Source: Anaerolineae bacterium (GTDB lineage: Bacteria; Chloroflexota; Anaerolineae; B4-G1; SLSP01). From it: DNA of 64,000 bases. The notes beneath the pieces are model-generated. The model did not search any database. It was given only the letters and a program-made list of their open reading frames with translations, and was not told the DNA's origin. Below, piece after piece: positions 15,441 through 46,165 of this stretch. Numbering within the stretch: the stretch's first letter is position 1; every line of letters begins with the position of its first letter. Location: positions 45,623 to 109,622 of the forward strand of contig JBNGCW010000011.1 in the NCBI GenBank assembly GCA_049975525.1, given 5' to 3'. Made by a program: the position numbers and the translations under genes.

Positions 15441-18400
15441 GTGGGAAACAAACACGCTCGCTATGCCTGGATGGCGTTGGCTTTATCAGGCGCCATCGCA
15501 CTCCTCGGCCTGATCCAGACCGTCACCTGGGCCTCTCCTCCGGGGCCGCAGATCGAGTATCCACCGCTGCCGGAGCCCGATCCTGCCATGTCCCCCGAGC
15601 GCCTGGCCTCGCAAGTCGCGCTCTCCTCGCTGCCCGACCCCGCCGATCCCATACCGCTCCCCGAGCCCGCTTGGCGCATCGGCGTGATCACCGACGGCCT
15701 CTACGCCCTGAGCTACGCGACGTTGAACGCAGCAGGGGTGCCCGTCGCAGACGCCGACCCCGCTGCCTACCGCCTCTTCTGGCGCGGGCAGGAAGTCGCC
15801 CTGGACGCCAGCGACGTGGGCGACACCTTCGAGCCGGGCGAAGCCTTCTACTTCTACGGCGAGAAGTTCCACGGCTCGACCCAGGACGAGAAGTACACCG
15901 ACGAGAACGTCTACTGGCTGACCGTCGACGCGACCACGCCGGGCCTGCGCATGGCGACCCGCGACGTGACGCCGAATGGTCTTGGCACACCGGTCACCTG
16001 GTATACGGAGACACTGCACGCCGAGGAGAATCTCATCTGGTGGTCGCGTTGGTCGACCACACCGGGCACCGACGCCACGTGGTTCTGGGACGACGTGACG
16101 GCTTCCTCACCGGTCACGCGCAGCTACTCTGTTACGCTCTCCGACCTGGCTGCAGGGAGTCATGACGCCATGCTGATTGTGGAGTTGGCCGGACGGACCA
16201 CCAACGCCCATCGGGTCCGTTTTACGCTGAACGGCACCGTCGTGGGAGAGGCCACATGGTCCGGCGACGTGGGGCATGTGGCGACGCTCCCCTTCTCAGC
16301 AACCGCGCTGGTGGAAGGACAAAACACGCTTGATATGGCCATTCTCACCGACAGTGGAGCTCAGCGTATCTACTTGAACTGGTTCGAGATCCGGTACCCG
16401 CGAAAGATGGTATCTGTTGAGGGCGCTCTTGAATTCGGGGTTGAACTCTCCGGCACCGTTGCCGTCACGCTGACAGAATTCAGCACATCCACCCTACAGC
16501 TCTACGATGTGAGCGAGCCTCTCACCCCGACACGCTTGATCGGAGGGGAGATCACCGGATCCGGTGGCAACTATCAGTTGGCATTCCAGGATATGACCTC
16601 GACAGAGAAAATTTACCTGGCTACAGAGACGGACGTTGCCCGCTCGCCCGGCGATATCTCCTCATATACGCCATCCGCCGACTGGCTTAACCCCGGCGCA
16701 GGCGCCGATCTCATCGTCTTCGCTACATCAACCCACTTCACAGCCGTACAGCCCCTCATTGAACAGCGCCGTGCTCAGGGGATGCGAGTGCAGTTGGTCG
16801 ATGTAGCGGATGCGTATGCGCTGTTCAACGGCGGCATCGTGCACCCTGAAGCCATCCGGGCCTTCGTCACGTATGCGTACACGCATTGGCCGGGGCCCTC
16901 ACCGCAATATATCCTGCTTGTAGGCGACGCCAGTTTCAACCTCAAAGGCTACAACGAAGCGGCTTACGGCCCATGGACGCCACCCGTCATTCTCCCCTAT
17001 CTGGATTTCATCGATCCCGATCAGGGGGAGGTGCCCGTGGACGCCTATTTCGGCGACACCACCGGCGACGGCCTCCCCGAACTGGCGGTGGGACGCATAC
17101 CGGCTTACACCCCGGAAGACGTAGCGGGGTTCGTGAATAAAATCCTCGCGTATGAAAACCGCCCTCCGGCGGACTGGATGAAGCGGGCGCTCTTCGTCGC
17201 CGACGATGGAAAAACCTCCATTGAGGGATTCGCCTCAACGTTGAACCACCTGATGGCGGAGTACGTGCCCTCGACGCTGCTCACCCATACCGTCTACATT
17301 CAGGATTACTGTGGTCTCTCCGGCGCTTGCCCCGCGGCCACTGAGGCCTTGACCCAGACCTGGGGCCAGGAGGCTATCCTGCTCACCTATGCCGGACACG
17401 GGTCCATCCACCGTTGGGCCCACGAGCCACTGTTGCTCAACGAGCAGCTGGCCACGCTGCCCCCCATGGAAGGACTTCCCTTTATCATCTCCTTGGATTG
17501 TTGGGACGGCTATTGGCTCTTCCCCCCCATCTATCCTTCGCTGGGCAGTCAAGATGTGCGTTCCATTGGTGAATGGGCCACCACAGTGCTCACGGATCGA
17601 GGCGCCATAGGACTTTTCGGTCCGGCGGGGTTGGGTTATCTCTACATCGAGGATGACATGGCCGACGCGATGTACGACGCCATGTTCAACGGGGGGATTT
17701 TCCGCCTTGGAGATCTTACCCATCCGGCGCGTCGGACGGTCTCCAGCTCCTACCTGGCCCGTACCTACAGCCTCCTGGGTGATCCGACGTTGATGCTCTC
17801 CGTGTGGGACTCCCTGACGGCCACACCCTCCGGCGTCACCTTAACCGTCAATACACAGTTGACGCTCCCCGAGACCTTCGACGTCACCGGGACAACCCAT
17901 TATGGGGACGTGTTCACCATCACCCCCACCTGGACGGTCAACGACGGCACACTGAACGCCTGGGGTCTCTTCACCGCCCCCACTGAGGCGGGTTACGTGA
18001 CGTTGACGGCACACCTGGGACAGTTCTCTGTCCCCATCTCCATCCGAGTGCTGGGTGAGCCCGTCTCCATGACCGTGAGCCCGGACCCTCTGAAGATCGG
18101 TGCCGGTCTGACGGCCACCCTGCACGCCGAAGTCATAGATGCTTGGGGCAACATCCTCAACGAAACCCCAACGTGGAGCGCCGATGTGGGCGAGATCCAT
18201 CCAATGAAGGGCGTTTTCACCGCGCCGCTGCAGCCGACCCAAGGACACATTACCGCGACATTGGGCACGCTCGACGATGCGATAACCGTCGAGGTTCAAG
18301 CCCGCGAGCCCACCACCGTAAGCGTCACCCCCGCCTTGCTGCAGCTTCCCGTGGGAGCAACACAGCAGATGACGGCCACCGTCACCGACCGGTGGGGAAA

Positions 18401-18587
18401 TCCACTGCCGAACGCGACGGTACTATGGTCTACCGACGTCGGCGTGATCAATGCCCAGGGGGTATTCACCGCCGATTCAAAGCCAGGAGAAGGTTGGATT
18501 ACTGCTACCTCTCAAAGTGCCATCGGGCGGGCAGCGGTGACAGTCTATAGCTACAACATTTACCTTCCTTTAACAATACGCAACTAA
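15441..18587 (+). CDS. Secreted peptidase C25 (gingipain-like) with C-terminal Big_2/Ig-like domains
   Basis: GTG start after GGAAGGAGG RBS. Signal peptide present. Catalytic His in YAGHGS and Cys in SLDCWDG. Three Ig-like repeats follow. The protein ends ...YSYNIYLPLTIRN. Confidence 0.8.
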   Translation: MGNKHARYAWMALALSGAIALLGLIQTVTWASPPGPQIEYPPLPEPDPAMSPERLASQVALSSLPDPADPIPLPEPAWRIGVITDGLYALSYATLNAAGVPVADADPAAYRLFWRGQEVALDASDVGDTFEPGEAFYFYGEKFHGSTQDEKYTDENVYWLTVDATTPGLRMATRDVTPNGLGTPVTWYTETLHAEENLIWWSRWSTTPGTDATWFWDDVTASSPVTRSYSVTLSDLAAGSHDAMLIVELAGRTTNAHRVRFTLNGTVVGEATWSGDVGHVATLPFSATALVEGQNTLDMAILTDSGAQRIYLNWFEIRYPRKMVSVEGALEFGVELSGTVAVTLTEFSTSTLQLYDVSEPLTPTRLIGGEITGSGGNYQLAFQDMTSTEKIYLATETDVARSPGDISSYTPSADWLNPGAGADLIVFATSTHFTAVQPLIEQRRAQGMRVQLVDVADAYALFNGGIVHPEAIRAFVTYAYTHWPGPSPQYILLVGDASFNLKGYNEAAYGPWTPPVILPYLDFIDPDQGEVPVDAYFGDTTGDGLPELAVGRIPAYTPEDVAGFVNKILAYENRPPADWMKRALFVADDGKTSIEGFASTLNHLMAEYVPSTLLTHTVYIQDYCGLSGACPAATEALTQTWGQEAILLTYAGHGSIHRWAHEPLLLNEQLATLPPMEGLPFIISLDCWDGYWLFPPIYPSLGSQDVRSIGEWATTVLTDRGAIGLFGPAGLGYLYIEDDMADAMYDAMFNGGIFRLGDLTHPARRTVSSSYLARTYSLLGDPTLMLSVWDSLTATPSGVTLTVNTQLTLPETFDVTGTTHYGDVFTITPTWTVNDGTLNAWGLFTAPTEAGYVTLTAHLGQFSVPISIRVLGEPVSMTVSPDPLKIGAGLTATLHAEVIDAWGNILNETPTWSADVGEIHPMKGVFTAPLQPTQGHITATLGTLDDAITVEVQAREPTTVSVTPALLQLPVGATQQMTATVTDRWGNPLPNATVLWSTDVGVINAQGVFTADSKPGEGWITATSQSAIGRAAVTVYSYNIYLPLTIRN

Positions 18588-18590
18588 ACC

Positions 18591-20216
18591 GTGGATCTCA
18601 AAACAGCCTCCTGGTGGGACGCACTAGAGAAGCCGTGGCCCGGCACGCTGCACCTCCACGTGCGCGGGCGTAGCATGCTGCCTACCCTCCGCCCTGGCGA
18701 CGAGATCGTGGTGGAATCGGTCGCCCCCGAAGATCTCCGGCGGGGGGACTGGATCGTCGTCCGAGTCTCACAACAACTCCTGGTGCATCGTCTGCTTGAC
18801 TTCACACGCGAAGGAAGCCTGCTCACCAAAGGAGACGCGCAACGGGCTCCCGATCCTCCCTGTGCCCCCCAAGATGTGCTGGGGAAAGTCACCGCTTTGA
18901 AACGCGAGGGTAAAATAATACCGTTGCATCCTCAGAGCGCGAGTGAGAAAATCAAAACACTCTGGCATCTTATCCTGGCCAGAACCTGGTTGGGACTGAG
19001 GGGGATCGATCTGCTGATGTACAGCCTGCTGATCATCAGCCCACTCCTGTTGCCGATCCTCGTCCTCGCGTCCGTCGACCTGCTTTACTTTGAGGCAGAG
19101 GCACAGAGCAACCGGATTTACCTCACCTGGGAGACGGCCAGCGAGACCAATATGCTGGGCTTTTACGTCCAGCGCTCTCAAGAAGAGGATGCCGGATATC
19201 AACGTATCTCCGAGCTGATTCCGGCCGTGGGAGATATTGCCGGCGCTTTCTACGATTTTACCGATAGCGACATAAGCCGGGAGACGCTTTACTACTACAA
19301 ACTGGAGGCTGTGGAGACCGACAACAGCGCCGAGCTGCACGGACCGATCTCCGCCTGCCTGGGGTGTCCGACGCCAACGCCCACCCACACACCCACGCCT
19401 TCCGCAACGCCCACTTCCACCTCGACGCCGACCCCCTCCCCAAGCCCTACCGGGGAGAGCACCTCGGAGCCAGGGCAACCGACCTCCACTTTCACACCTA
19501 CACCAACGCCCGAACCCGGCGCGCCCACAGCCGTCCCTTCGGTTTACCTGCGCTTCTGGGCCGACGCCACCAGCCTCGACGCCGGTCAGTGCACCACGCT
19601 GCGCTGGCAGACGGATAACGCAGCCCGTGTCGAGCTCAACGGGGAAGGCGTGCCGGGCGGCTACAGCGAGGAGCGGGTCTGTCCCTGCACCGATCAGACC
19701 TACACGCTGCGCGCCGTCGGTCATGACGGGGACATCGAAGAAAGTACCATCTCACTAGACATCAGTGGCGCCTGCACACCCGTGCCGCCCGGCAGCACCG
19801 CCACACCGACGCGCACGCCGCGCCCGACCCAGACCTCCACCTCACGCCCCCCGCGCACCCACGCCGCCGCGACGGCGACGCCGCGACCGACCGAAACGCC
19901 CCGTGACGCGCAGACCGCCGCGACGCCGACGCCGTCGCCCACCGCCCATGCCGACTCCCCCCTGTCAACGCCGCAAACCGTCACGACCACGTCAACCCCG
20001 TCCCCCGAGCTCTCATCTTCGTCCACGCTCACCATCGCCGGGGGTCTGCCGACGCGCGCCCCCGCCCCCATCGGTCAGAGTGACATCCAGAACGTGAACA
20101 CACGTTCCGGCCGCGCGCCCGGCTGGCTCATCATCACGCTCATCAGTGGCACCGGCTTGATCGGCGCGGGCGGCTGGGGCATCTGGCGCGCCTGGAAGGA
20201 GAGAGAGGGCGCATGA
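18591..20216 (+). CDS. SipW-like ER/archaeal-type signal peptidase (S26B) fused to TM segments, FN3/Ig-like domains, Pro/Thr linkers and a C-terminal TM anchor
   Basis: GRSMLPTL...GDEIVV...GDWIVV...VHRLL matches the Ser/His-dyad SipW/Sec11 pattern, with no catalytic Lys box. The C-terminus is hydrophobic with a basic tail. The GTG start lies 3 nt after the upstream stop. Confidence 0.6.
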   Translation: MDLKTASWWDALEKPWPGTLHLHVRGRSMLPTLRPGDEIVVESVAPEDLRRGDWIVVRVSQQLLVHRLLDFTREGSLLTKGDAQRAPDPPCAPQDVLGKVTALKREGKIIPLHPQSASEKIKTLWHLILARTWLGLRGIDLLMYSLLIISPLLLPILVLASVDLLYFEAEAQSNRIYLTWETASETNMLGFYVQRSQEEDAGYQRISELIPAVGDIAGAFYDFTDSDISRETLYYYKLEAVETDNSAELHGPISACLGCPTPTPTHTPTPSATPTSTSTPTPSPSPTGESTSEPGQPTSTFTPTPTPEPGAPTAVPSVYLRFWADATSLDAGQCTTLRWQTDNAARVELNGEGVPGGYSEERVCPCTDQTYTLRAVGHDGDIEESTISLDISGACTPVPPGSTATPTRTPRPTQTSTSRPPRTHAAATATPRPTETPRDAQTAATPTPSPTAHADSPLSTPQTVTTTSTPSPELSSSSTLTIAGGLPTRAPAPIGQSDIQNVNTRSGRAPGWLIITLISGTGLIGAGGWGIWRAWKEREGA

Positions 20217-22213
20217 GACGCGGGCTCGTCCTGCTCCTGGTCATCTTGATCAGCGGCTGCACTGCCCAGGCCGCCGACCCGCCGACCGCCTCTCCGTCAG
20301 GCGTCTGGTTCGTGGAGCTGGCGCAGACAGGCGCAACCTGGCTTTCGCCGCAGACGCTGCGTGACCTGGGCCTGGACACCGACGCCGCGCCCGCGCTGCG
20401 CCTCAGCATGGGCGCGCGCGATCTGCCCTATCTCCCCCTGCCCGCCCGCCGGGGCTGGGGCGTGCTCTTCTTCGCTCCCAACGGCACAACGCGCTACACT
20501 AAACGCACCGTCGTCCGGCTGGAACCCGGCGTCGCAGGCGACCGCATGCCCTCCCAACCCGCCGAGACCACCGCCTCACCGGCGCCCGCCCTTGCGACGG
20601 TCACCTGGGAGCAGGACATCCGCTATCTCCCGCAGGCCACCGCCGACGTGCCCTGGCTCTGGGAACCCATCTACACGCCCGGCGCTTTGGAGCAGACCGT
20701 CGTGCTCACCGACGCGCAGCCCGGCCCCATCACCGCGATGGTGCGCCTCTGGAGCCACACTGGCTTCCAGCCGCAACCCGACCACCGCGCCGTGCTCGCC
20801 TGGGAGGGCACCCCCGTCGGAGAGTGGACGTGGAGCGGGCAGGGCATGCAGACGCTCACCGCCACCTGGCCTCTCGAAGAGAGCGGCGGCGAGCACACCC
20901 TGACCCTGCAGACCCCGGCCCTGGTCGAGGACAAAGTCGCCGTCGTCTGGATCGACGGCTGGGAGATCACCTACCCGCGCCGGGTGACCCAGGGCGTCTA
21001 CACGGCAGCCGGTGACGCGCTGCGCGCGTCGCCCCAGGCCCGCGTACTCGACGTGACCGACCCCTTCGCGCCGCTGGATCTCGGCGCCGTCCCGGAAAAC
21101 GGCGTCATCGGCACGCTGCGCGGGCACCGCTACTGGATCGGCTCGCCGGAGCAGGCTCAGACGCCCGTGTCCCTGCGTCCCGCCGCGCTACTGGATACCG
21201 CCGCCCTCAGCGCGACGGAGTACCTGGTCATCGCGCCGCCCGCCTTCCGGCCGCCGATTCAACCTCTGGTCGATCACAGGAAGGCTTCCGGCCTCAACGT
21301 GGCCGTGGTCTCACCCCAGTCCATCTACGACACCTTGGGAACCGGGCAACCCGACCCCGCGTCCCTGCGCGCCTTGATCCAGACGCTACCCGACCTGCGC
21401 TACGCACTGCTGGTCGGCGACGCGACCACAGAGCCCTGGGGCTACGACGGCGAGGACGGCGCCCTGCGCGTCGTCACGCCCTTCACGCGCACCACCGTGC
21501 TCGGCGAGACGCCCGCCGACGCCCTCCTGGGCACAGACGCGACCGGACATCCGCGCGTGGCCGTGGGTCGCTTCCCCGCCGCAAGCGTCGCCGAGGTCGA
21601 GGCCATGGTGGCGAAGACACTGGCCTGGGAAGCGAACGCCGCCGAGGCCTCATCCGTGCTCCTCAACGACGACGAACAGGAGTTCGTCAGCGCGGTGGAT
21701 GCGCTGACCGCCCTGCTCCCAGAGGGAGATGATGCGCCGCGCCTGGACGCCGGCGACCCGACGTGCCGCGACACGCTGCTGAGCACGTTGAGCGACGGGC
21801 CTCGCGTGCTCACCTACGTCGGACACGGCAGCTTGCGCCAGCTGGGCGATGAGGGTGTGCTGCTGATCGAGGATGGGGCTATGTGGGACGATCCCTCGGT
21901 CGTCGTGGCATGGACCTGTCTCGCGGCACACTTCACCCACACGCGCCAGCCCTCCATGGCCGAGGTCTGGCTGGCGCAGCCGCAGGGTGGCGTGGCGGCG
22001 TTTCTTGGTCCCGTCGGCGAGACGACGACGTTTGAACAAAAACCCTATGCCGCCGCTTTCTACGCGGCGCTGCAGGAGACGCCCCGGCTGGGCGACGCCT
22101 GGCTGACCGCGCTCCAGACCCCAGGCTCGCGCGACGTGCGCTGGGGCTTCACCATCCTGGGCGATCCAGCCTTGCACCTCCCCGGCACGTCGGCGCCCGA
22201 GCGATCCCCATAA
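20213..22213 (+). CDS. Peptidase C25 family lipoprotein (paralog of 15441..18587)
   Basis: The ATGA start overlaps the upstream stop. Lipobox LLLVILISGC. His in YVGHGS and Cys in AWTCLAAHF. The N-terminal domain is paralogous to the first C25 protein. Confidence 0.75.
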   Translation: MRRGLVLLLVILISGCTAQAADPPTASPSGVWFVELAQTGATWLSPQTLRDLGLDTDAAPALRLSMGARDLPYLPLPARRGWGVLFFAPNGTTRYTKRTVVRLEPGVAGDRMPSQPAETTASPAPALATVTWEQDIRYLPQATADVPWLWEPIYTPGALEQTVVLTDAQPGPITAMVRLWSHTGFQPQPDHRAVLAWEGTPVGEWTWSGQGMQTLTATWPLEESGGEHTLTLQTPALVEDKVAVVWIDGWEITYPRRVTQGVYTAAGDALRASPQARVLDVTDPFAPLDLGAVPENGVIGTLRGHRYWIGSPEQAQTPVSLRPAALLDTAALSATEYLVIAPPAFRPPIQPLVDHRKASGLNVAVVSPQSIYDTLGTGQPDPASLRALIQTLPDLRYALLVGDATTEPWGYDGEDGALRVVTPFTRTTVLGETPADALLGTDATGHPRVAVGRFPAASVAEVEAMVAKTLAWEANAAEASSVLLNDDEQEFVSAVDALTALLPEGDDAPRLDAGDPTCRDTLLSTLSDGPRVLTYVGHGSLRQLGDEGVLLIEDGAMWDDPSVVVAWTCLAAHFTHTRQPSMAEVWLAQPQGGVAAFLGPVGETTTFEQKPYAAAFYAALQETPRLGDAWLTALQTPGSRDVRWGFTILGDPALHLPGTSAPERSP

Positions 22214-41779: not shown

Positions 41780-44700
41780 CTACGGACGGCTCACCAGGGG
41801 CAGGAAAACTGAGTAAGGCCAGCCCTGAGCCGTGGTCGTATCAACCACGGAAGCCGAGACCGATCCATCGCCCAACGAGGTCGCGGTCACCGTCAGGACG
41901 TCAACGACCCCTTCTGCCGTTCCCGGAGGTATGGAGACGTAGACCTTCACCGTCGTCGAGGCGCCCGCCGCCAGGGTCGCAGCGATAGGCTGGACAGATC
42001 CGCTCCAGCCCTGACTGGACGCCGCACTCAGGTGGAAGGTGTCGGAGCCATTGCCGTCGTTGGTCAGCGTATGCTCATAAACAACCTGCGTCCCCGGCAA
42101 GCCTCCCACCGCCCGGTCGGGTGTGAAGGTCAAGGCGGGCACCAGGGCCACCGTGATATCGTCTTGCGCGCCATCTACCACCGCCGGGTTGGGCACCGAA
42201 GCGGCGGTCACGTTGATAGAGTCCGTCGTCCCCGCGGCCAGACCGGTCGGCACATCGACCTTCACCAGCACCGTCGCCGATCCGGCGGCCGGTACCGTCA
42301 CCAGGGCCGGCATCACGTGCACCGGCCAACCGTTTGCGGAAACGGCGCTGACGTTGAAGGTGTCCTGTGCGTTACCGGTGTTCTGCACCGTGTGTGTGAA
42401 GACCGCCTGAGTGCCCGGATCGGGCGAGGCGCTGAGGTCAGGTGTCAGAGAAACGCCGGAGAGACGCCACTCGTAGCAGCCCATATCCGCGTCACCGCCG
42501 GCGGGCACCGGTCGCGGCACACCGTCCAGATCGAGGGCCGGCGCCGCTGCCGTCTCGGCTGCGTCCACCGCCGGCGAGGTCTGCTGGAGGTGATAGTCGC
42601 CTCCGCCGACGAAGAGCGGGTTCTGGTCGATGTTGCCCGCCCCGGACCAGCCGCCCTCGATGTCAGAGTACGTAGCCTTCATCGTCTGCGTCACCGGATA
42701 AGCGCTGGTGAAGGCAGCGGTGTGCCCCCAGAGGATGGTGTTGGAGAGATAGGCCGTGGTGGTGAGTGTGCCGCTGATGTAGACGCCGCTTTCCCCATTG
42801 TTGGCGATGGTGTCGTTGAGGCTGCGGAAATCGGCCTCGTCTACGAAAACGCCGGCCGCCAACTGGCTGCCGCCGGTGTTGTCGGCGATCAGGTTGTTGA
42901 CGCTCCGGCCCCATAGCGGGTCGGTCAGATTCTCGTTGTCGATGACCATGCCCGCGCTCCGATAACCGGCGGTGTTGCTGAGCACCCGGTTGCGCTCCAG
43001 GAAATACTGGCTGTCATCCCCGCCCTTGAGGTAGATGCCTGCGCTTTCGGTGATGGCCGTATTGGCGCGGATGAGATTATGCTCCATCACTAACCGCGAG
43101 CCTCTGTACAGTTCGGCGTAGAATCCGGCCAGACTATTCTGGGCCTCGTTGCCGGCGATGGTGTTATCCACCATAGTCAGCATGCCGGCGTCGGAGAGAT
43201 CGGTGTACATCCCGGCGTAGCTGCCGCCGGTGGTGCCGGTGAGATAGGCAGTGTTGGAGAGCACCTGATTGCGGCGAAAGTCCACTTGGCCGCCGTACTT
43301 GATGTCCTCGAGGTAAAGCCCGCCATAATCGCCGCCGAGCACCTGGGCGGGTGCGGCGATGATCTGGGTTCCGACCCGCACCGTCTCGGTGATGCCGGCC
43401 CGGTTGCCGACGAGCCGGTTATCCCAGAAACGCATCACTGTGCCATCGGACACGCTATCGAAGTAGAGCCCGCCATAGTTGCCGCCGGCGGTGTTGCGGT
43501 TGAACTGGTTGCCGATGAAATCTACCTCGGCCTTCTCGATGTTGTAGAAGCGGCAGCCGCCGTAGTCGCCAAGGGCCGTGTTGTCGTTGATCAGGTTGCG
43601 GTTGAAGTGGACCACCGCTCCGTTGTACCAGTAATCGTCGAAGTAGCAGCCGCCGCCCGCGTCGCCGGCCCAGTTGCGCTGCAACTGGTTGTCCTCGAAG
43701 TACCAGACTGAGCCGTAGTCGACGTAGTCGTCGAAGTAGAGGCCGCCGCCGTCGTCCGTGGAGATATTATCGTTGATCTGGTTACCCGTCATCCACACGG
43801 TGGCGCCCTCGTCGATGGTGTAGAGATAGATCCCCCCGCCGCCGTAGGAGCCGGTGCTGGAGATGGTATTGTGGCTGATAACGTTGTCGTGGAACTGGAC
43901 GCGGCCGCCACTTTCGACTCTGTAGAAGTAAAGTCCGCCGCCGGCGCCGCCGGTGGTCAGGTTGCCGGTGATCACGTTGCGGTTGAAGGCCAGCGTGACG
44001 CCCTCGTAGGCCGGATGGTACATGTAGACCCCCCCGCCGTCGCCGTCGGAGACGTTGTCCACGACGACGTTGTCGCTGAAAGAGACGTCAGCCCCATCAG
44101 AGCCGAACTCGGAGCTGTAGAAGCCGCCCCCTGCGCCGCCGGCCGTGTTGCCGCGCAGCACATTGCGGTCGAAGGTGCCCAGCGCCCCTTCGTAGGCGAA
44201 GTAGTAGTTGTAGAACCCGCCTCCCTCGTCGCCGGCCGTGTTGTTGAGGAACTGGTTGTCGTCAAAGTGAACCTCGGTGCCATAGTGGGTCTCGTAGAAG
44301 TAGACCCCGCCGCCGTCACCGGTGGCGGCCTCGTTGTTTTCAAAGACGTTGCGGCTCATCGAGAGCTGGCAGCCCTCGGTGCAGTAGTACCAATAGAGGC
44401 CACCGCCGCTGTTCCCGGCCCTGTTATCGCGGTAGACGCCGTCGTCAAAGACCAGCTGCCCCGATCCTTGGTGGGCCTCGTAGAGGTAGAACCCGCCGCC
44501 CTCGTCGCCGGCCGTGTTGCGTTCAAAGGTGAGATGATCGGCCTGGATGGAGACAGCCGGGGGGGCGTTGTAGTAAATCTCGTCCATGTAGAAGCCGCCG
44601 CCGTCGGCGCCGGCCGTGTTGCTGACGAAGCGGGCGTGGCTCAGCTCCAGGTAGGCGCGGTAGTTGGGGCCGTAGTCGAAATAGATGCCGCCGCCGTCGC

Positions 44701-46165
44701 TGGCAGCGGTGTTGGTCAGGAACTCGGTCTGGCCCAACAGCATCCTCGAGCCAGCGTAGATATCGCCCACGTAGAGGCCGCCGCCGTCGGCGCCGGCCGT
44801 GTTGCGCTCGAACCGGCTGCCGGTCAGGTCCACCAGGCTGCCGTTGCTGGCTTGGGCGTACCCGCCGCCGCCGTTGTCGCCGGCCGTGTTGCTGATCACC
44901 TGGGCGTTGGTGGCGATGACCGTGTCGTTGCTGGCGTCCAGGTAGACGCCGCCGTAACTCCCGCCGGCGACGTTGTCATAGACATACAGATTGGTCGCAG
45001 TGATTGTAGAGTGGTCGTAGGCCTCAAAGTAGGCCCCACCATAGTCGTCGCCAGCCCGGTTGCCCGTGACCCGCGTGTTGGGCAAGTCTATGGCCGAGTT
45101 GTATCCGGCGTAGATGTATCCGCCGCCATAGTCGTAGGTACCACCGTTGACCGTGTTGTCCGCCAGCACCAAATTGTCGCCGGTGACCTGGCTGTTGCCA
45201 TAGGCATATAGATACAGCCCGCCGTAGCCCCGGTAGTTGGCCGTGTTGTTCCGGAACTCGTTGTCGTAGAAGGTGGCGCTGGAGTTGTAGTACATATAGA
45301 CGTAGCCGCCGCCGTAATAATCGTCGGCGTAGTTGCCGATCACGCGGTTGCGGTCGAAGGTGCCGTGGGAGTTGTACAGGGCGAAGTAGAGGCCGCCGTA
45401 GTAATGGTAAGGAAATCCAGAGGATCCATCTATGGCGGTGGTGTTATTCATCACCAGGTTGTCCTCGATCTGGAACTGGCCAAAGCCCTCCACGTAGGCG
45501 TACAGGCCGCCGTAGTAGTCTCCCGAGATGTTCCCTACAATGTTGTTGCCGGTCAGCGTGAGCGTGCCGGAAAGATAGACGTTGGCGTAGATGCCGGCGT
45601 AGTCGTCGGACGAGGTGTTGGTCATCACGTCGTTGCCGGTGATGTGCAGGTCGGAGCGGTTGTCCACATCGGCATAGATGCCGCCGCCATCGTCGGCGCT
45701 GTTGTCATGGATGAAGTTGTCGTGGATGGTCACGACGCTATCGTCTTCCACGTCTACGTAGATGCCGCCACCGTCGTTGGCGCCGGCGTCGCCGTTGGCG
45801 ATCTCGAAACCGTCGATGGTCACCTCGATCCCGGCGCCCTGGACGTCGATCACGCGCGCCGCTACGTTGCCCACGGTGGTGCTGCGCGGCGTGCGGCTGC
45901 CGAAGCCGGCCTCATATCCGCCCAGCAGCGTCAGCGACTTGGTGATGACCAGGTTTTCGTTGAAGGTCTCGTTGCGCACGTGGATGGTGTCGCCGGGGTT
46001 GGCCGCGTCGATGGCGGCCTGGATGGTGGCGTAGTCGCCACCGGTCCCCACCGTGATGATAGCCGCGCGCGTCAGTTGCGGCGTCAGCCACAACAGGGCC
46101 AGGCCCAGAGCGGCGACGCTCACGGCGGTCAAGATACTGAACAAAGCGTTGCGTTGCGTCCTCAT
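41780..46165 (-). CDS. Giant secreted right-handed parallel beta-helix repeat protein with C-terminal CARDB/Ig-like domains
   Basis: Signal peptide. Dozens of NTAGxDGGGxY-type beta-helix repeats. Two C-terminal Ig-like domains. The protein ends ...PYSVFLPLVSRP. Confidence 0.8.
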   Translation of the reverse strand: MRTQRNALFSILTAVSVAALGLALLWLTPQLTRAAIITVGTGGDYATIQAAIDAANPGDTIHVRNETFNENLVITKSLTLLGGYEAGFGSRTPRSTTVGNVAARVIDVQGAGIEVTIDGFEIANGDAGANDGGGIYVDVEDDSVVTIHDNFIHDNSADDGGGIYADVDNRSDLHITGNDVMTNTSSDDYAGIYANVYLSGTLTLTGNNIVGNISGDYYGGLYAYVEGFGQFQIEDNLVMNNTTAIDGSSGFPYHYYGGLYFALYNSHGTFDRNRVIGNYADDYYGGGYVYMYYNSSATFYDNEFRNNTANYRGYGGLYLYAYGNSQVTGDNLVLADNTVNGGTYDYGGGYIYAGYNSAIDLPNTRVTGNRAGDDYGGAYFEAYDHSTITATNLYVYDNVAGGSYGGVYLDASNDTVIATNAQVISNTAGDNGGGGYAQASNGSLVDLTGSRFERNTAGADGGGLYVGDIYAGSRMLLGQTEFLTNTAASDGGGIYFDYGPNYRAYLELSHARFVSNTAGADGGGFYMDEIYYNAPPAVSIQADHLTFERNTAGDEGGGFYLYEAHQGSGQLVFDDGVYRDNRAGNSGGGLYWYYCTEGCQLSMSRNVFENNEAATGDGGGVYFYETHYGTEVHFDDNQFLNNTAGDEGGGFYNYYFAYEGALGTFDRNVLRGNTAGGAGGGFYSSEFGSDGADVSFSDNVVVDNVSDGDGGGVYMYHPAYEGVTLAFNRNVITGNLTTGGAGGGLYFYRVESGGRVQFHDNVISHNTISSTGSYGGGGIYLYTIDEGATVWMTGNQINDNISTDDGGGLYFDDYVDYGSVWYFEDNQLQRNWAGDAGGGCYFDDYWYNGAVVHFNRNLINDNTALGDYGGCRFYNIEKAEVDFIGNQFNRNTAGGNYGGLYFDSVSDGTVMRFWDNRLVGNRAGITETVRVGTQIIAAPAQVLGGDYGGLYLEDIKYGGQVDFRRNQVLSNTAYLTGTTGGSYAGMYTDLSDAGMLTMVDNTIAGNEAQNSLAGFYAELYRGSRLVMEHNLIRANTAITESAGIYLKGGDDSQYFLERNRVLSNTAGYRSAGMVIDNENLTDPLWGRSVNNLIADNTGGSQLAAGVFVDEADFRSLNDTIANNGESGVYISGTLTTTAYLSNTILWGHTAAFTSAYPVTQTMKATYSDIEGGWSGAGNIDQNPLFVGGGDYHLQQTSPAVDAAETAAAPALDLDGVPRPVPAGGDADMGCYEWRLSGVSLTPDLSASPDPGTQAVFTHTVQNTGNAQDTFNVSAVSANGWPVHVMPALVTVPAAGSATVLVKVDVPTGLAAGTTDSINVTAASVPNPAVVDGAQDDITVALVPALTFTPDRAVGGLPGTQVVYEHTLTNDGNGSDTFHLSAASSQGWSGSVQPIAATLAAGASTTVKVYVSIPPGTAEGVVDVLTVTATSLGDGSVSASVVDTTTAQGWPYSVFLPLVSRP

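Follow-up and report, generated by a model that had tools for sequence, protein, structure and literature searches.

The LPXTG/sortase, PEP-CTERM/exosortase, PGF-CTERM/archaeosortase and MYXO-CTERM/myxosortase systems have in common a short C-terminal signature, carriers that are unrelated secreted proteins, and restriction to particular lineages. The same features are found in the YLP box, which NCBIfam curates as a putative sorting motif of secreted Chloroflexota proteins. In the type IX secretion system (T9SS), the C-terminal signal is a folded sorting domain of roughly 70-100 residues; PorU itself carries this domain uncleaved, and the gingipains have Arg/Lys specificity. Sludge, sediments and hot springs harbour abundant Chloroflexota, a phylum whose envelope architecture is debated and whose display of surface proteins is, to our knowledge, essentially uncharacterised. 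Here, the tails of two large secreted proteins, a C25 cysteine peptidase and a right-handed β-helix protein, were analysed in a 64,000-nucleotide stretch of DNA (the window) from an Anaerolineae bacterium (assembly GCA_049975525.1, contig JBNGCW010000011.1, positions 45,623 to 109,622 of the forward strand). A sequence-only reading of the window had noticed that these proteins share a tail, [YF]-LPL-x-x-R-x, and had proposed it as an undescribed sorting, attachment or cleavage signal. Both tails are instances of the YLP box, and the signal had thus already been named as a putative sorting motif.

The C25 peptidase (designated C25#1; 15441..18587, + strand, 1048 residues) ends in VYSYNIYLPLTIRN (in short, NIYLPLTIRN before the stop codon), and the β-helix protein (41780..46165, - strand, 1461 residues) ends in PYSVFLPLVSRP (in short, SVFLPLVSRP). 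The box is YLPLTIR in C25#1 (residues 1041-1047; 18561..18581, +), followed by N and a TAA stop codon, and FLPLVSR in the β-helix protein (residues 1454-1460; 41786..41806, -), followed by P and a stop codon. A transmembrane (TM) segment after the tail was found in neither protein, a single residue preceding the stop codon in each. Both boxes follow immunoglobulin (Ig)-like domains. In C25#1, these domains match Big_1/Big_2, and the last β-sandwich strand of the AlphaFold2 model ends at residue 1036; in the β-helix protein, which also contains a choice-of-anchor-Q domain, the two Ig-like domains match Ig_VWA7/NPCBM_assoc and reach approximately residue 1434. The two tails were therefore as the sequence-only reading had described them, at the extreme C-terminus and without a TM segment, and their placement after Ig-like domains was borne out by the Pfam and NCBIfam domain matches and, for the C25 peptidase, by the predicted β-sandwich.

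Among the 532 stop-to-stop six-frame open reading frames (ORFs) of at least 60 residues in the window, such a tail ends only two real genes, those of C25#1 and the β-helix protein. From the amino-acid composition of the window, approximately 6e-4 tails would be expected among 35 proteins, and the probability of two or more is approximately 2e-7. The DNA of the two tails is mismatched at many positions, and in 41 instances of the motif the codons show synonymous variation, so conservation and selection are at the level of the peptide and not of the DNA. The C25 tail (18555..18584) is encoded by AT-rich codons (CTT CCT TTA ACA ATA) in a window of 62% G+C, whereas the codons of the β-helix tail are GC-rich, as is typical for the window. 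A third match in the window, YLPLPAR (20429..20449), corresponds to residues 73-79 of a second C25 peptidase (C25#2, described below) and lies within a folded domain; it was treated as a chance match because the ortholog, with PWFPLETD, does not conserve it.

NCBIfam release 20.0 was scanned with tail peptides of 22-32 residues. The peptides matched two models: NF050076.1 (sort_motif_YLP), with 11 positions and a cut-off of 15 bits, and NF053834.1 (ultrashort_CTERM), with 10 positions and a cut-off of 10 bits. Both carry the description 'YLP-box putative sorting motif-containing protein' and refer to Chloroflexota secreted proteins. The 22-residue β-helix tail scored 18.3 and 15.5 bits against the two models, respectively, and the tail of P0002, the closest ortholog of the window C25 peptidase, scored 17.4 and 14.4 bits; all four scores exceed the cut-offs. 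The tail of P0059 scored 18.1 bits against NF050076 (cut-off 15). With one residue after the motif, the β-helix tail also occupies the extreme C-terminal position that NF053834 requires. These matches indicate that the motif was already curated, and the word 'undescribed' in the sequence-only reading must accordingly be withdrawn. The models describe the same motif, aligning to [IV]YLPLVLR at the protein end, and carry the same interpretation as a putative sorting signal.

The tail of C25#1 itself, with the variant LPLTIR, gave no match to NF050076 or NF053834 at E <= 10. Its box is divergent, with T and I in place of the consensus V and L, and C25#1 qualifies as a YLP-box protein through orthology only, since its own tail goes undetected and that of P0002 passes. 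The YLP-box models were also not listed for the full-length window proteins at E <= 0.1, probably because HMMER filters drop very short models in long sequences. In cluster look-ups, 'YLP-box' did not occur among the annotation names, which read only 'choice-of-anchor Q domain-containing protein' or 'hypothetical protein'.

Conservation of the tail was extensive in homologs of both proteins. Approximately 90 of the best 120 C25 homologs, which are 41-62% identical to the window protein, end in [IV][YF]LP[LIM]xx[RK] plus 0-4 residues, and this terminal box is present with or without preceding Ig domains. Where source names were given, the C25 homologs were from Anaerolineae, Thermoflexia or Chloroflexota. 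By a looser pattern, approximately 51 of 120 β-helix relatives carry the tail, including nearly all of the closest; the orthologs P0121-P0143 keep it, and it is also found on many distant relatives of other architecture (S8, DUF11, PKD). In these 240 proteins, 156 occurrences of the core pattern were counted where 3 would be expected, 126 of them no more than 4 residues from the end. The residues after Arg/Lys in these 126 tails number 0-4 and are unconserved, and 17 tails end exactly at Arg. The consensus is [IV]-Y-L-P-[LIM]-[VIA]-[LVIM]-[RK] plus 0-4 residues, with the logo [IV]-Y-L-P-L-V-L-R; the pattern first proposed from the window matches both tails but is a slightly degenerate version of it. 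The carriers belong to unrelated families, namely C25, M14 and S8 peptidases, β-helix, DUF11, Reg_prop/propeller and PKD proteins. In relatives from outside the Chloroflexota, the same position is occupied by a T9SS sorting domain (PF18962 in some) or by tails that look dockerin-like or TM-plus-basic. Two β-helix relatives, P0170 and P0181, have similar short ends of another kind, GVMMLLLDEN and GIIMLLLDED, which match nothing in NCBIfam and may represent another ultrashort C-terminal motif.

The distribution of the box was determined by scanning a genome collection, with one genome per species, for DNA encoding YLPLVLR; at least 120 loci were obtained, and the results below apply to the matches and loci listed. 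YLPLVLR followed by a stop within 4 codons and preceded by at least 150 codons was found in 25 of 45 Chloroflexota-labelled matches and in 2 of 76 others (p = 1e-11). The two exceptions, one in a metagenome-assembled genome (MAG) labelled just 'uncultured bacterium' and one on a 1.9-kb contig, are both probably Chloroflexota DNA. Similarly, 38 of 718 Chloroflexota ORFs of at least 150 residues ended in the tail, against 1 of 1001 from other sources (p = 5e-14). The box is thus found at ORF ends almost solely in Chloroflexota. Long ORFs with canonical YLP boxes were seen on a contig in a 'Nitratifractor' MAG (L054), which is probably mis-binned, and at two loci (L024 and L025) of an 'uncultured bacterium' MAG, which probably belongs to the Chloroflexota. 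Several tail-bearing genes lie side by side within some single 8-kb Chloroflexota loci, from which it follows that a genome probably holds many copies of the box.

Carriers of the box also resembled exported proteins. Signal-peptide-like N-termini were present in 25 of 28 complete carriers and in 39 of 230 other long ORFs (p = 2e-14), as judged by a crude hydropathy rule and with spurious ORFs included in the control set. The sequence-only reading had called for a motif search in related genomes and for a test of enrichment among signal-peptide proteins, and it had held that random frequency of the motif, or its absence from orthologs, would speak against a signal. Indeed, the tail was concentrated at ORF ends of one phylum and in proteins with signal-peptide-like N-termini, its frequency was far from random both in the window and among Chloroflexota ORF ends, orthologs of both window proteins keep it, and the idea that it is common to unrelated surface proteins now extends from two carriers to the families listed above.

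Some individual loci carry features of their own. In a Thermoflexales MAG, three consecutive genes with YLP boxes (L011:1..7489) encode a partial ORF, a C25 peptidase with a C25 propeptide domain, and an M14 zinc carboxypeptidase; one might speculate that the carboxypeptidase trims the residues after the Arg. Small secreted proteins of approximately 100 residues, with GGFWGG directly before the YLP box, are encoded at four loci (L007, L079:7320-7643, L082 and L109), and in the last three they adjoin a conserved ORF of approximately 550 residues without a match in Pfam.

The structural context of the box was examined in AlphaFold2 models. In the model of C25#1 (93-sequence alignment; mean predicted local distance difference test score (pLDDT) 89, predicted template modelling score (pTM) 0.79), the tail, residues 1039-1048, had a pLDDT below 50 and was without secondary structure; it is therefore predicted to be an exposed appendage outside any fold. 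The model of P0104, in which the box is internal, was likewise disordered in the region of that box (residues 424-458), again with a pLDDT below 50. Internal boxes with the same flank signature were found between modules of large proteins (L041, L025 and L053) and in an N-terminal linker (L040). In addition, a protein of more than 2000 residues with CARDB, PKD and β-helix domains (L016:1893-7997, +) has a YLP box and linker within a small N-terminal domain that is cupredoxin-like by eye. This internal box scored 12.3 bits against both NCBIfam models, below the NF050076 cut-off of 15 and above the NF053834 cut-off of 10, and is not C-terminal.

Subclades of the C25#1 family that lack the terminal box have a box and a Gly/Ser-rich linker inserted at one of three sites, all of which are surface loops between strands in the AlphaFold2 model. 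The insertion near query residue 175 (12 sequences) reads YLPLVL[GNS], with loss of the Arg; that near residue 327 (4 sequences) reads YLPLxIR; and that near residue 401 (8 sequences) reads YLPLVLR or YLPLLLK in 6, with S or N for R/K in the other 2. In the 93-sequence alignment, all 8 members with the residue-401 insert were without a terminal box, and the insert occurred in no other member. Because termini without a box are matched by internal boxes at these three loops, the box is portable and can do without a free C-terminus; each C25#1 protein appears to have one. The sequence FLPWWLR, found after the catalytic domain in some C25 homologs, was not counted as a box, as it aligns with ordinary domain-end sequence. 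A nine-member C25#1 subclade (P0019, P0022, P0027, P0028, P0031, P0034, P0035, P0048 and P0065) has an internal box without the Arg and a different conserved tail, [YF]L[PL]xGLxVAAL..L plus a basic or charged stretch (for example, AYLPIGLSVAALATLQEKLLRRRRERRE). Such a tail may represent the signal in an ancestral or an extended version.

The YLP box is thus a lineage-specific, disordered short linear motif, conserved at the protein level and located at or near the extreme C-termini of many unrelated proteins of Anaerolineae/Thermoflexia-type Chloroflexota with signal-peptide-like N-termini. C25#1 comprises a signal peptide, N-terminal β-sandwich domains, the catalytic domain, three Ig-like domains and the box. 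It is a member of family C25 (PF01364, Peptidase_C25; E = 1e-65, 222.9 bits against a gathering score of 23), and its catalytic His653 and Cys687 are invariant across 93 sequences. The best fold match in the PDB was PorU (6ZA2; E = 4.5e-41), followed by RgpB and Kgp, and PorU was also the best sequence match in the PDB. Against the NCBIfam T9SS_sortase PorU model (NF033707), C25#1 reached E = 1e-67 and 228.5 bits, far below the equivalog cut-off of 420, and against the PorU2 model it reached 166 bits (cut-off 450). Since the fold is PorU-like and the score falls short of the NF033707 cut-off, C25#1 is referred to here as PorU-like in architecture and not as PorU.

C25#1 is the first gene of a three-gene module (15441..22213, +) whose order recurs elsewhere: first a PorU-like C25 peptidase with a box, then a membrane protein of the SipW-like S24/S26 type, and last a PorU-like C25 peptidase that is a lipoprotein without a box. 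The middle gene (18591..20216, +) encodes an N-terminal SipW/archaeal-type S24/S26 peptidase domain that scored 49.3 bits against TIGR02228 (cut-off 51.85) and also matched Pfam Peptidase_S24. Behind this domain lie a first TM segment, an FN3-like domain, a linker rich in Pro and Thr, and a second TM segment at the C-terminus; GxSMxPT, LHR and TKGD are conserved in those orthologs that include the corresponding segments. An N-terminal TM segment was apparent neither in the window protein nor in the aligned orthologs, for which reason the peptidase domain may face the cytoplasm. The reading frame of C25#1 is also that of the SipW-like ORF, whose GTG start is preceded by the TAA stop and one further codon, ACC (18585..18593).

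The third gene, C25#2 (20213..22213, +), shares 4 nt with the middle gene, whose stop its start overlaps. It is 24% identical to C25#1, keeps GHGS and the catalytic His and Cys, and has a lipoprotein-type signal (LISGC). No YLP tail was found among 91 C25#2 homologs (0/91), and most full-length ones have the lipobox Cys. The combination of a lipoprotein signal and no box in C25#2 fits the view that box and lipid anchor are alternative means of retention. The SipW-like gene and C25#2 stood next to each other in 17 of 17 metagenome loci for which sequence extended downstream, C25#1 lay upstream of this pair in 13 of 20 metagenome loci (L130-L149), and the complete order was also present in L126, L127 and L128. 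A general link of SipW to C25#1 was rejected, as the two most distant contexts (L124 and L125) have a major facilitator superfamily (MFS) transporter and Thy1 adjacent and no module. Most YLP-box genes are encoded away from the module.

We consider it somewhat probable that the YLP box is an exposed docking peptide, read by another envelope protein that retains or attaches the carrier. The carrier would be exported through Sec with its box exposed, a dedicated envelope factor would recognise the box, and this factor would retain or attach the carrier at the cell surface. The box would thereby take the part of LPXTG, of PEP-CTERM or of the C-terminal domains of T9SS in other systems, while having no transmembrane segment. 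A docking peptide is favoured over recognition of a free C-terminus because the position of the box changes, the Arg can be lost at internal positions, and the lipid-anchored paralog has no box. The function suggested by the sequence-only reading, a sorting, attachment or cleavage signal, is reasonable, given the conservation in orthologs, the unrelated carriers, the signal-peptide-like N-termini and the anchors at the same position in other phyla. Its novelty did not hold, and the further idea in that reading, recognition of the tail by the neighbouring C25 and SipW-like peptidases, is a weak hypothesis. Several points weigh against the docking peptide. Predicted disorder is a mere absence of predicted packing and is weak evidence, the association with export relies on the crude test described above, and the NCBIfam models miss the C25 tail of the window. 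All-against-all clustering of neighbours around 45 YLP-box loci revealed no recurrent candidate enzyme, and a literature search by motif strings, sorting terms and C25/PorU in Chloroflexi found no paper and no experiment on the YLP box. Moreover, internal boxes are also compatible with a cleavage site, and the hydrophobic heptad could mediate self-association instead.

The first of these functions would be sortase-like: the C25/SipW-like module would recognise the box as a site of cleavage or transpeptidation, cutting at the Arg/Lys or behind it and linking the cargo covalently to an envelope polymer, as PorU does with T9SS cargo. Such a mechanism, though attractive by analogy with PorU, is unlikely in our judgement. 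C25#1 is PorU-like over its whole length, by both the 6ZA2 match (E = 4.5e-41) and the NCBIfam PorU model (E = 1e-67), the catalytic His and Cys are intact in C25#1 and C25#2 alike, and besides the window the gene order is found in L126-L128 and in 13 of the 20 metagenome loci, with the SipW-like gene and C25#2 adjacent in 17 of 17. The conserved basic residue would suit a gingipain-type specificity, PorU bears an uncleaved sorting domain of its own, and the 0-4 unconserved residues beyond the Arg look dispensable. However, the 17 of 126 tails that end at the Arg leave nothing for cleavage, and the boxes near residue 175 have no Arg (YLPLVL[GNS]), where cleavage would moreover split a folded domain. 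The distant C25#1 homologs of L124 and L125 lack an adjoining module, most YLP-box genes are not near it, the SipW-like domain without an N-terminal TM segment may face the cytoplasm, and AlphaFold2 did not place the C25#1 tail in its own active site. A broader proposal, in which the box is the address tag of an uncharacterised surface-display system without T9SS and the C25/SipW-like/C25 module is its core, reading the box at a terminus or loop and tethering or covalently attaching dozens of secreted enzymes and adhesins, appears quite unlikely; if true, it would extend PorU-type sorting beyond Bacteroidota and their relatives.

In a self-assembly model, the heptad would be a sticky end: by hydrophobic packing or by adding a strand, it would insert itself into an adjacent subunit or into a polymer of the sheath or matrix, and no dedicated enzyme would be needed. 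The strong hydrophobicity of the box, its β-branched flank and its location after the last strand of Ig-like domains would suit this role, as would its ability to act from loops as well as termini and its presence on large surface proteins that are often encoded in tandem (three in a row in L011). This explanation is nevertheless improbable: regular strand pairing is disfavoured by the Pro that is invariant at the centre of the box, a sequence this uniform on unrelated carriers suggests a single common reader and not many partner-specific interfaces, and a polymer would not obviously be built from enzymes such as the M14 and C25 peptidases. A role linked to export or turnover would make the tail a mini stop-transfer, a translocon-pausing element or a tag for a tail-specific protease, with no role in localisation. 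The hydrophobic stretch and Arg do resemble a truncated stop-transfer with its positive charge inside, the tail leaves the Sec channel last, and one C25#1 subclade ends in YLP, approximately 14 hydrophobic residues and a basic cluster. Yet internal boxes are flanked on both sides by exported domains and cannot span the membrane, 7-8 residues are too few to cross a bilayer, and the residues after the Arg are variable and in many cases polar, whereas tail-specific proteases favour non-polar ends. Such a role is very unlikely. Finally, the motif is short and has only two copies in the window, as might be expected of a chance resemblance or of a translated DNA-level element such as a terminator or repeat. 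We give this virtually no chance, and it is refuted by the window probability of approximately 2e-7, the hundreds of conserved instances in homologs, the synonymous codon variation together with the different DNA of the two window copies, and the strong enrichment at ORF ends in Chloroflexota only. The docking peptide remains the reading that we favour.

The motif itself had already been flagged by NCBI curators, and the window adds no discovery of it. What is added is a set of constraints, namely the predicted disorder of the box, its variable position, its apparent presence once per C25#1 protein, its absence from the lipoprotein paralog C25#2, and its genetic linkage to a recurring three-peptidase module. 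As a bacterial sorting signal, a tag of 7-8 residues that lacks a TM segment and marks many large secreted peptidases and adhesin-like proteins would be unusual, and the YLP box would be a handy predictor of the Chloroflexota surface proteome. The NCBIfam YLP-box entry supplies a name and not a mechanism, and the LPLTIR variant of the window C25 peptidase is too divergent for its models.

Compared with tripartite signals, the YLP box holds the position at which homologs from other phyla have such signals, T9SS sorting domains or dockerin-like tails. Unlike them, it is followed by 0-4 residues only, without a TM helix or basic cluster, and it seems to be still needed once moved to internal loops. 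No match to a sortase, exosortase or rhombosortase was obtained among the window proteins scanned. T9SS components were likewise not seen among these proteins, and neither tail-bearing protein of the window matched a T9SS sorting-domain model (for example, PF18962) in Pfam or NCBIfam. The box, a disordered 7-8-mer, also differs in kind from the folded sorting domain of T9SS. The likeness to T9SS and PorU lies instead in a conserved peptidase module and in the PorU-like C25#1, which bears the signal itself, as PorU bears its sorting domain.

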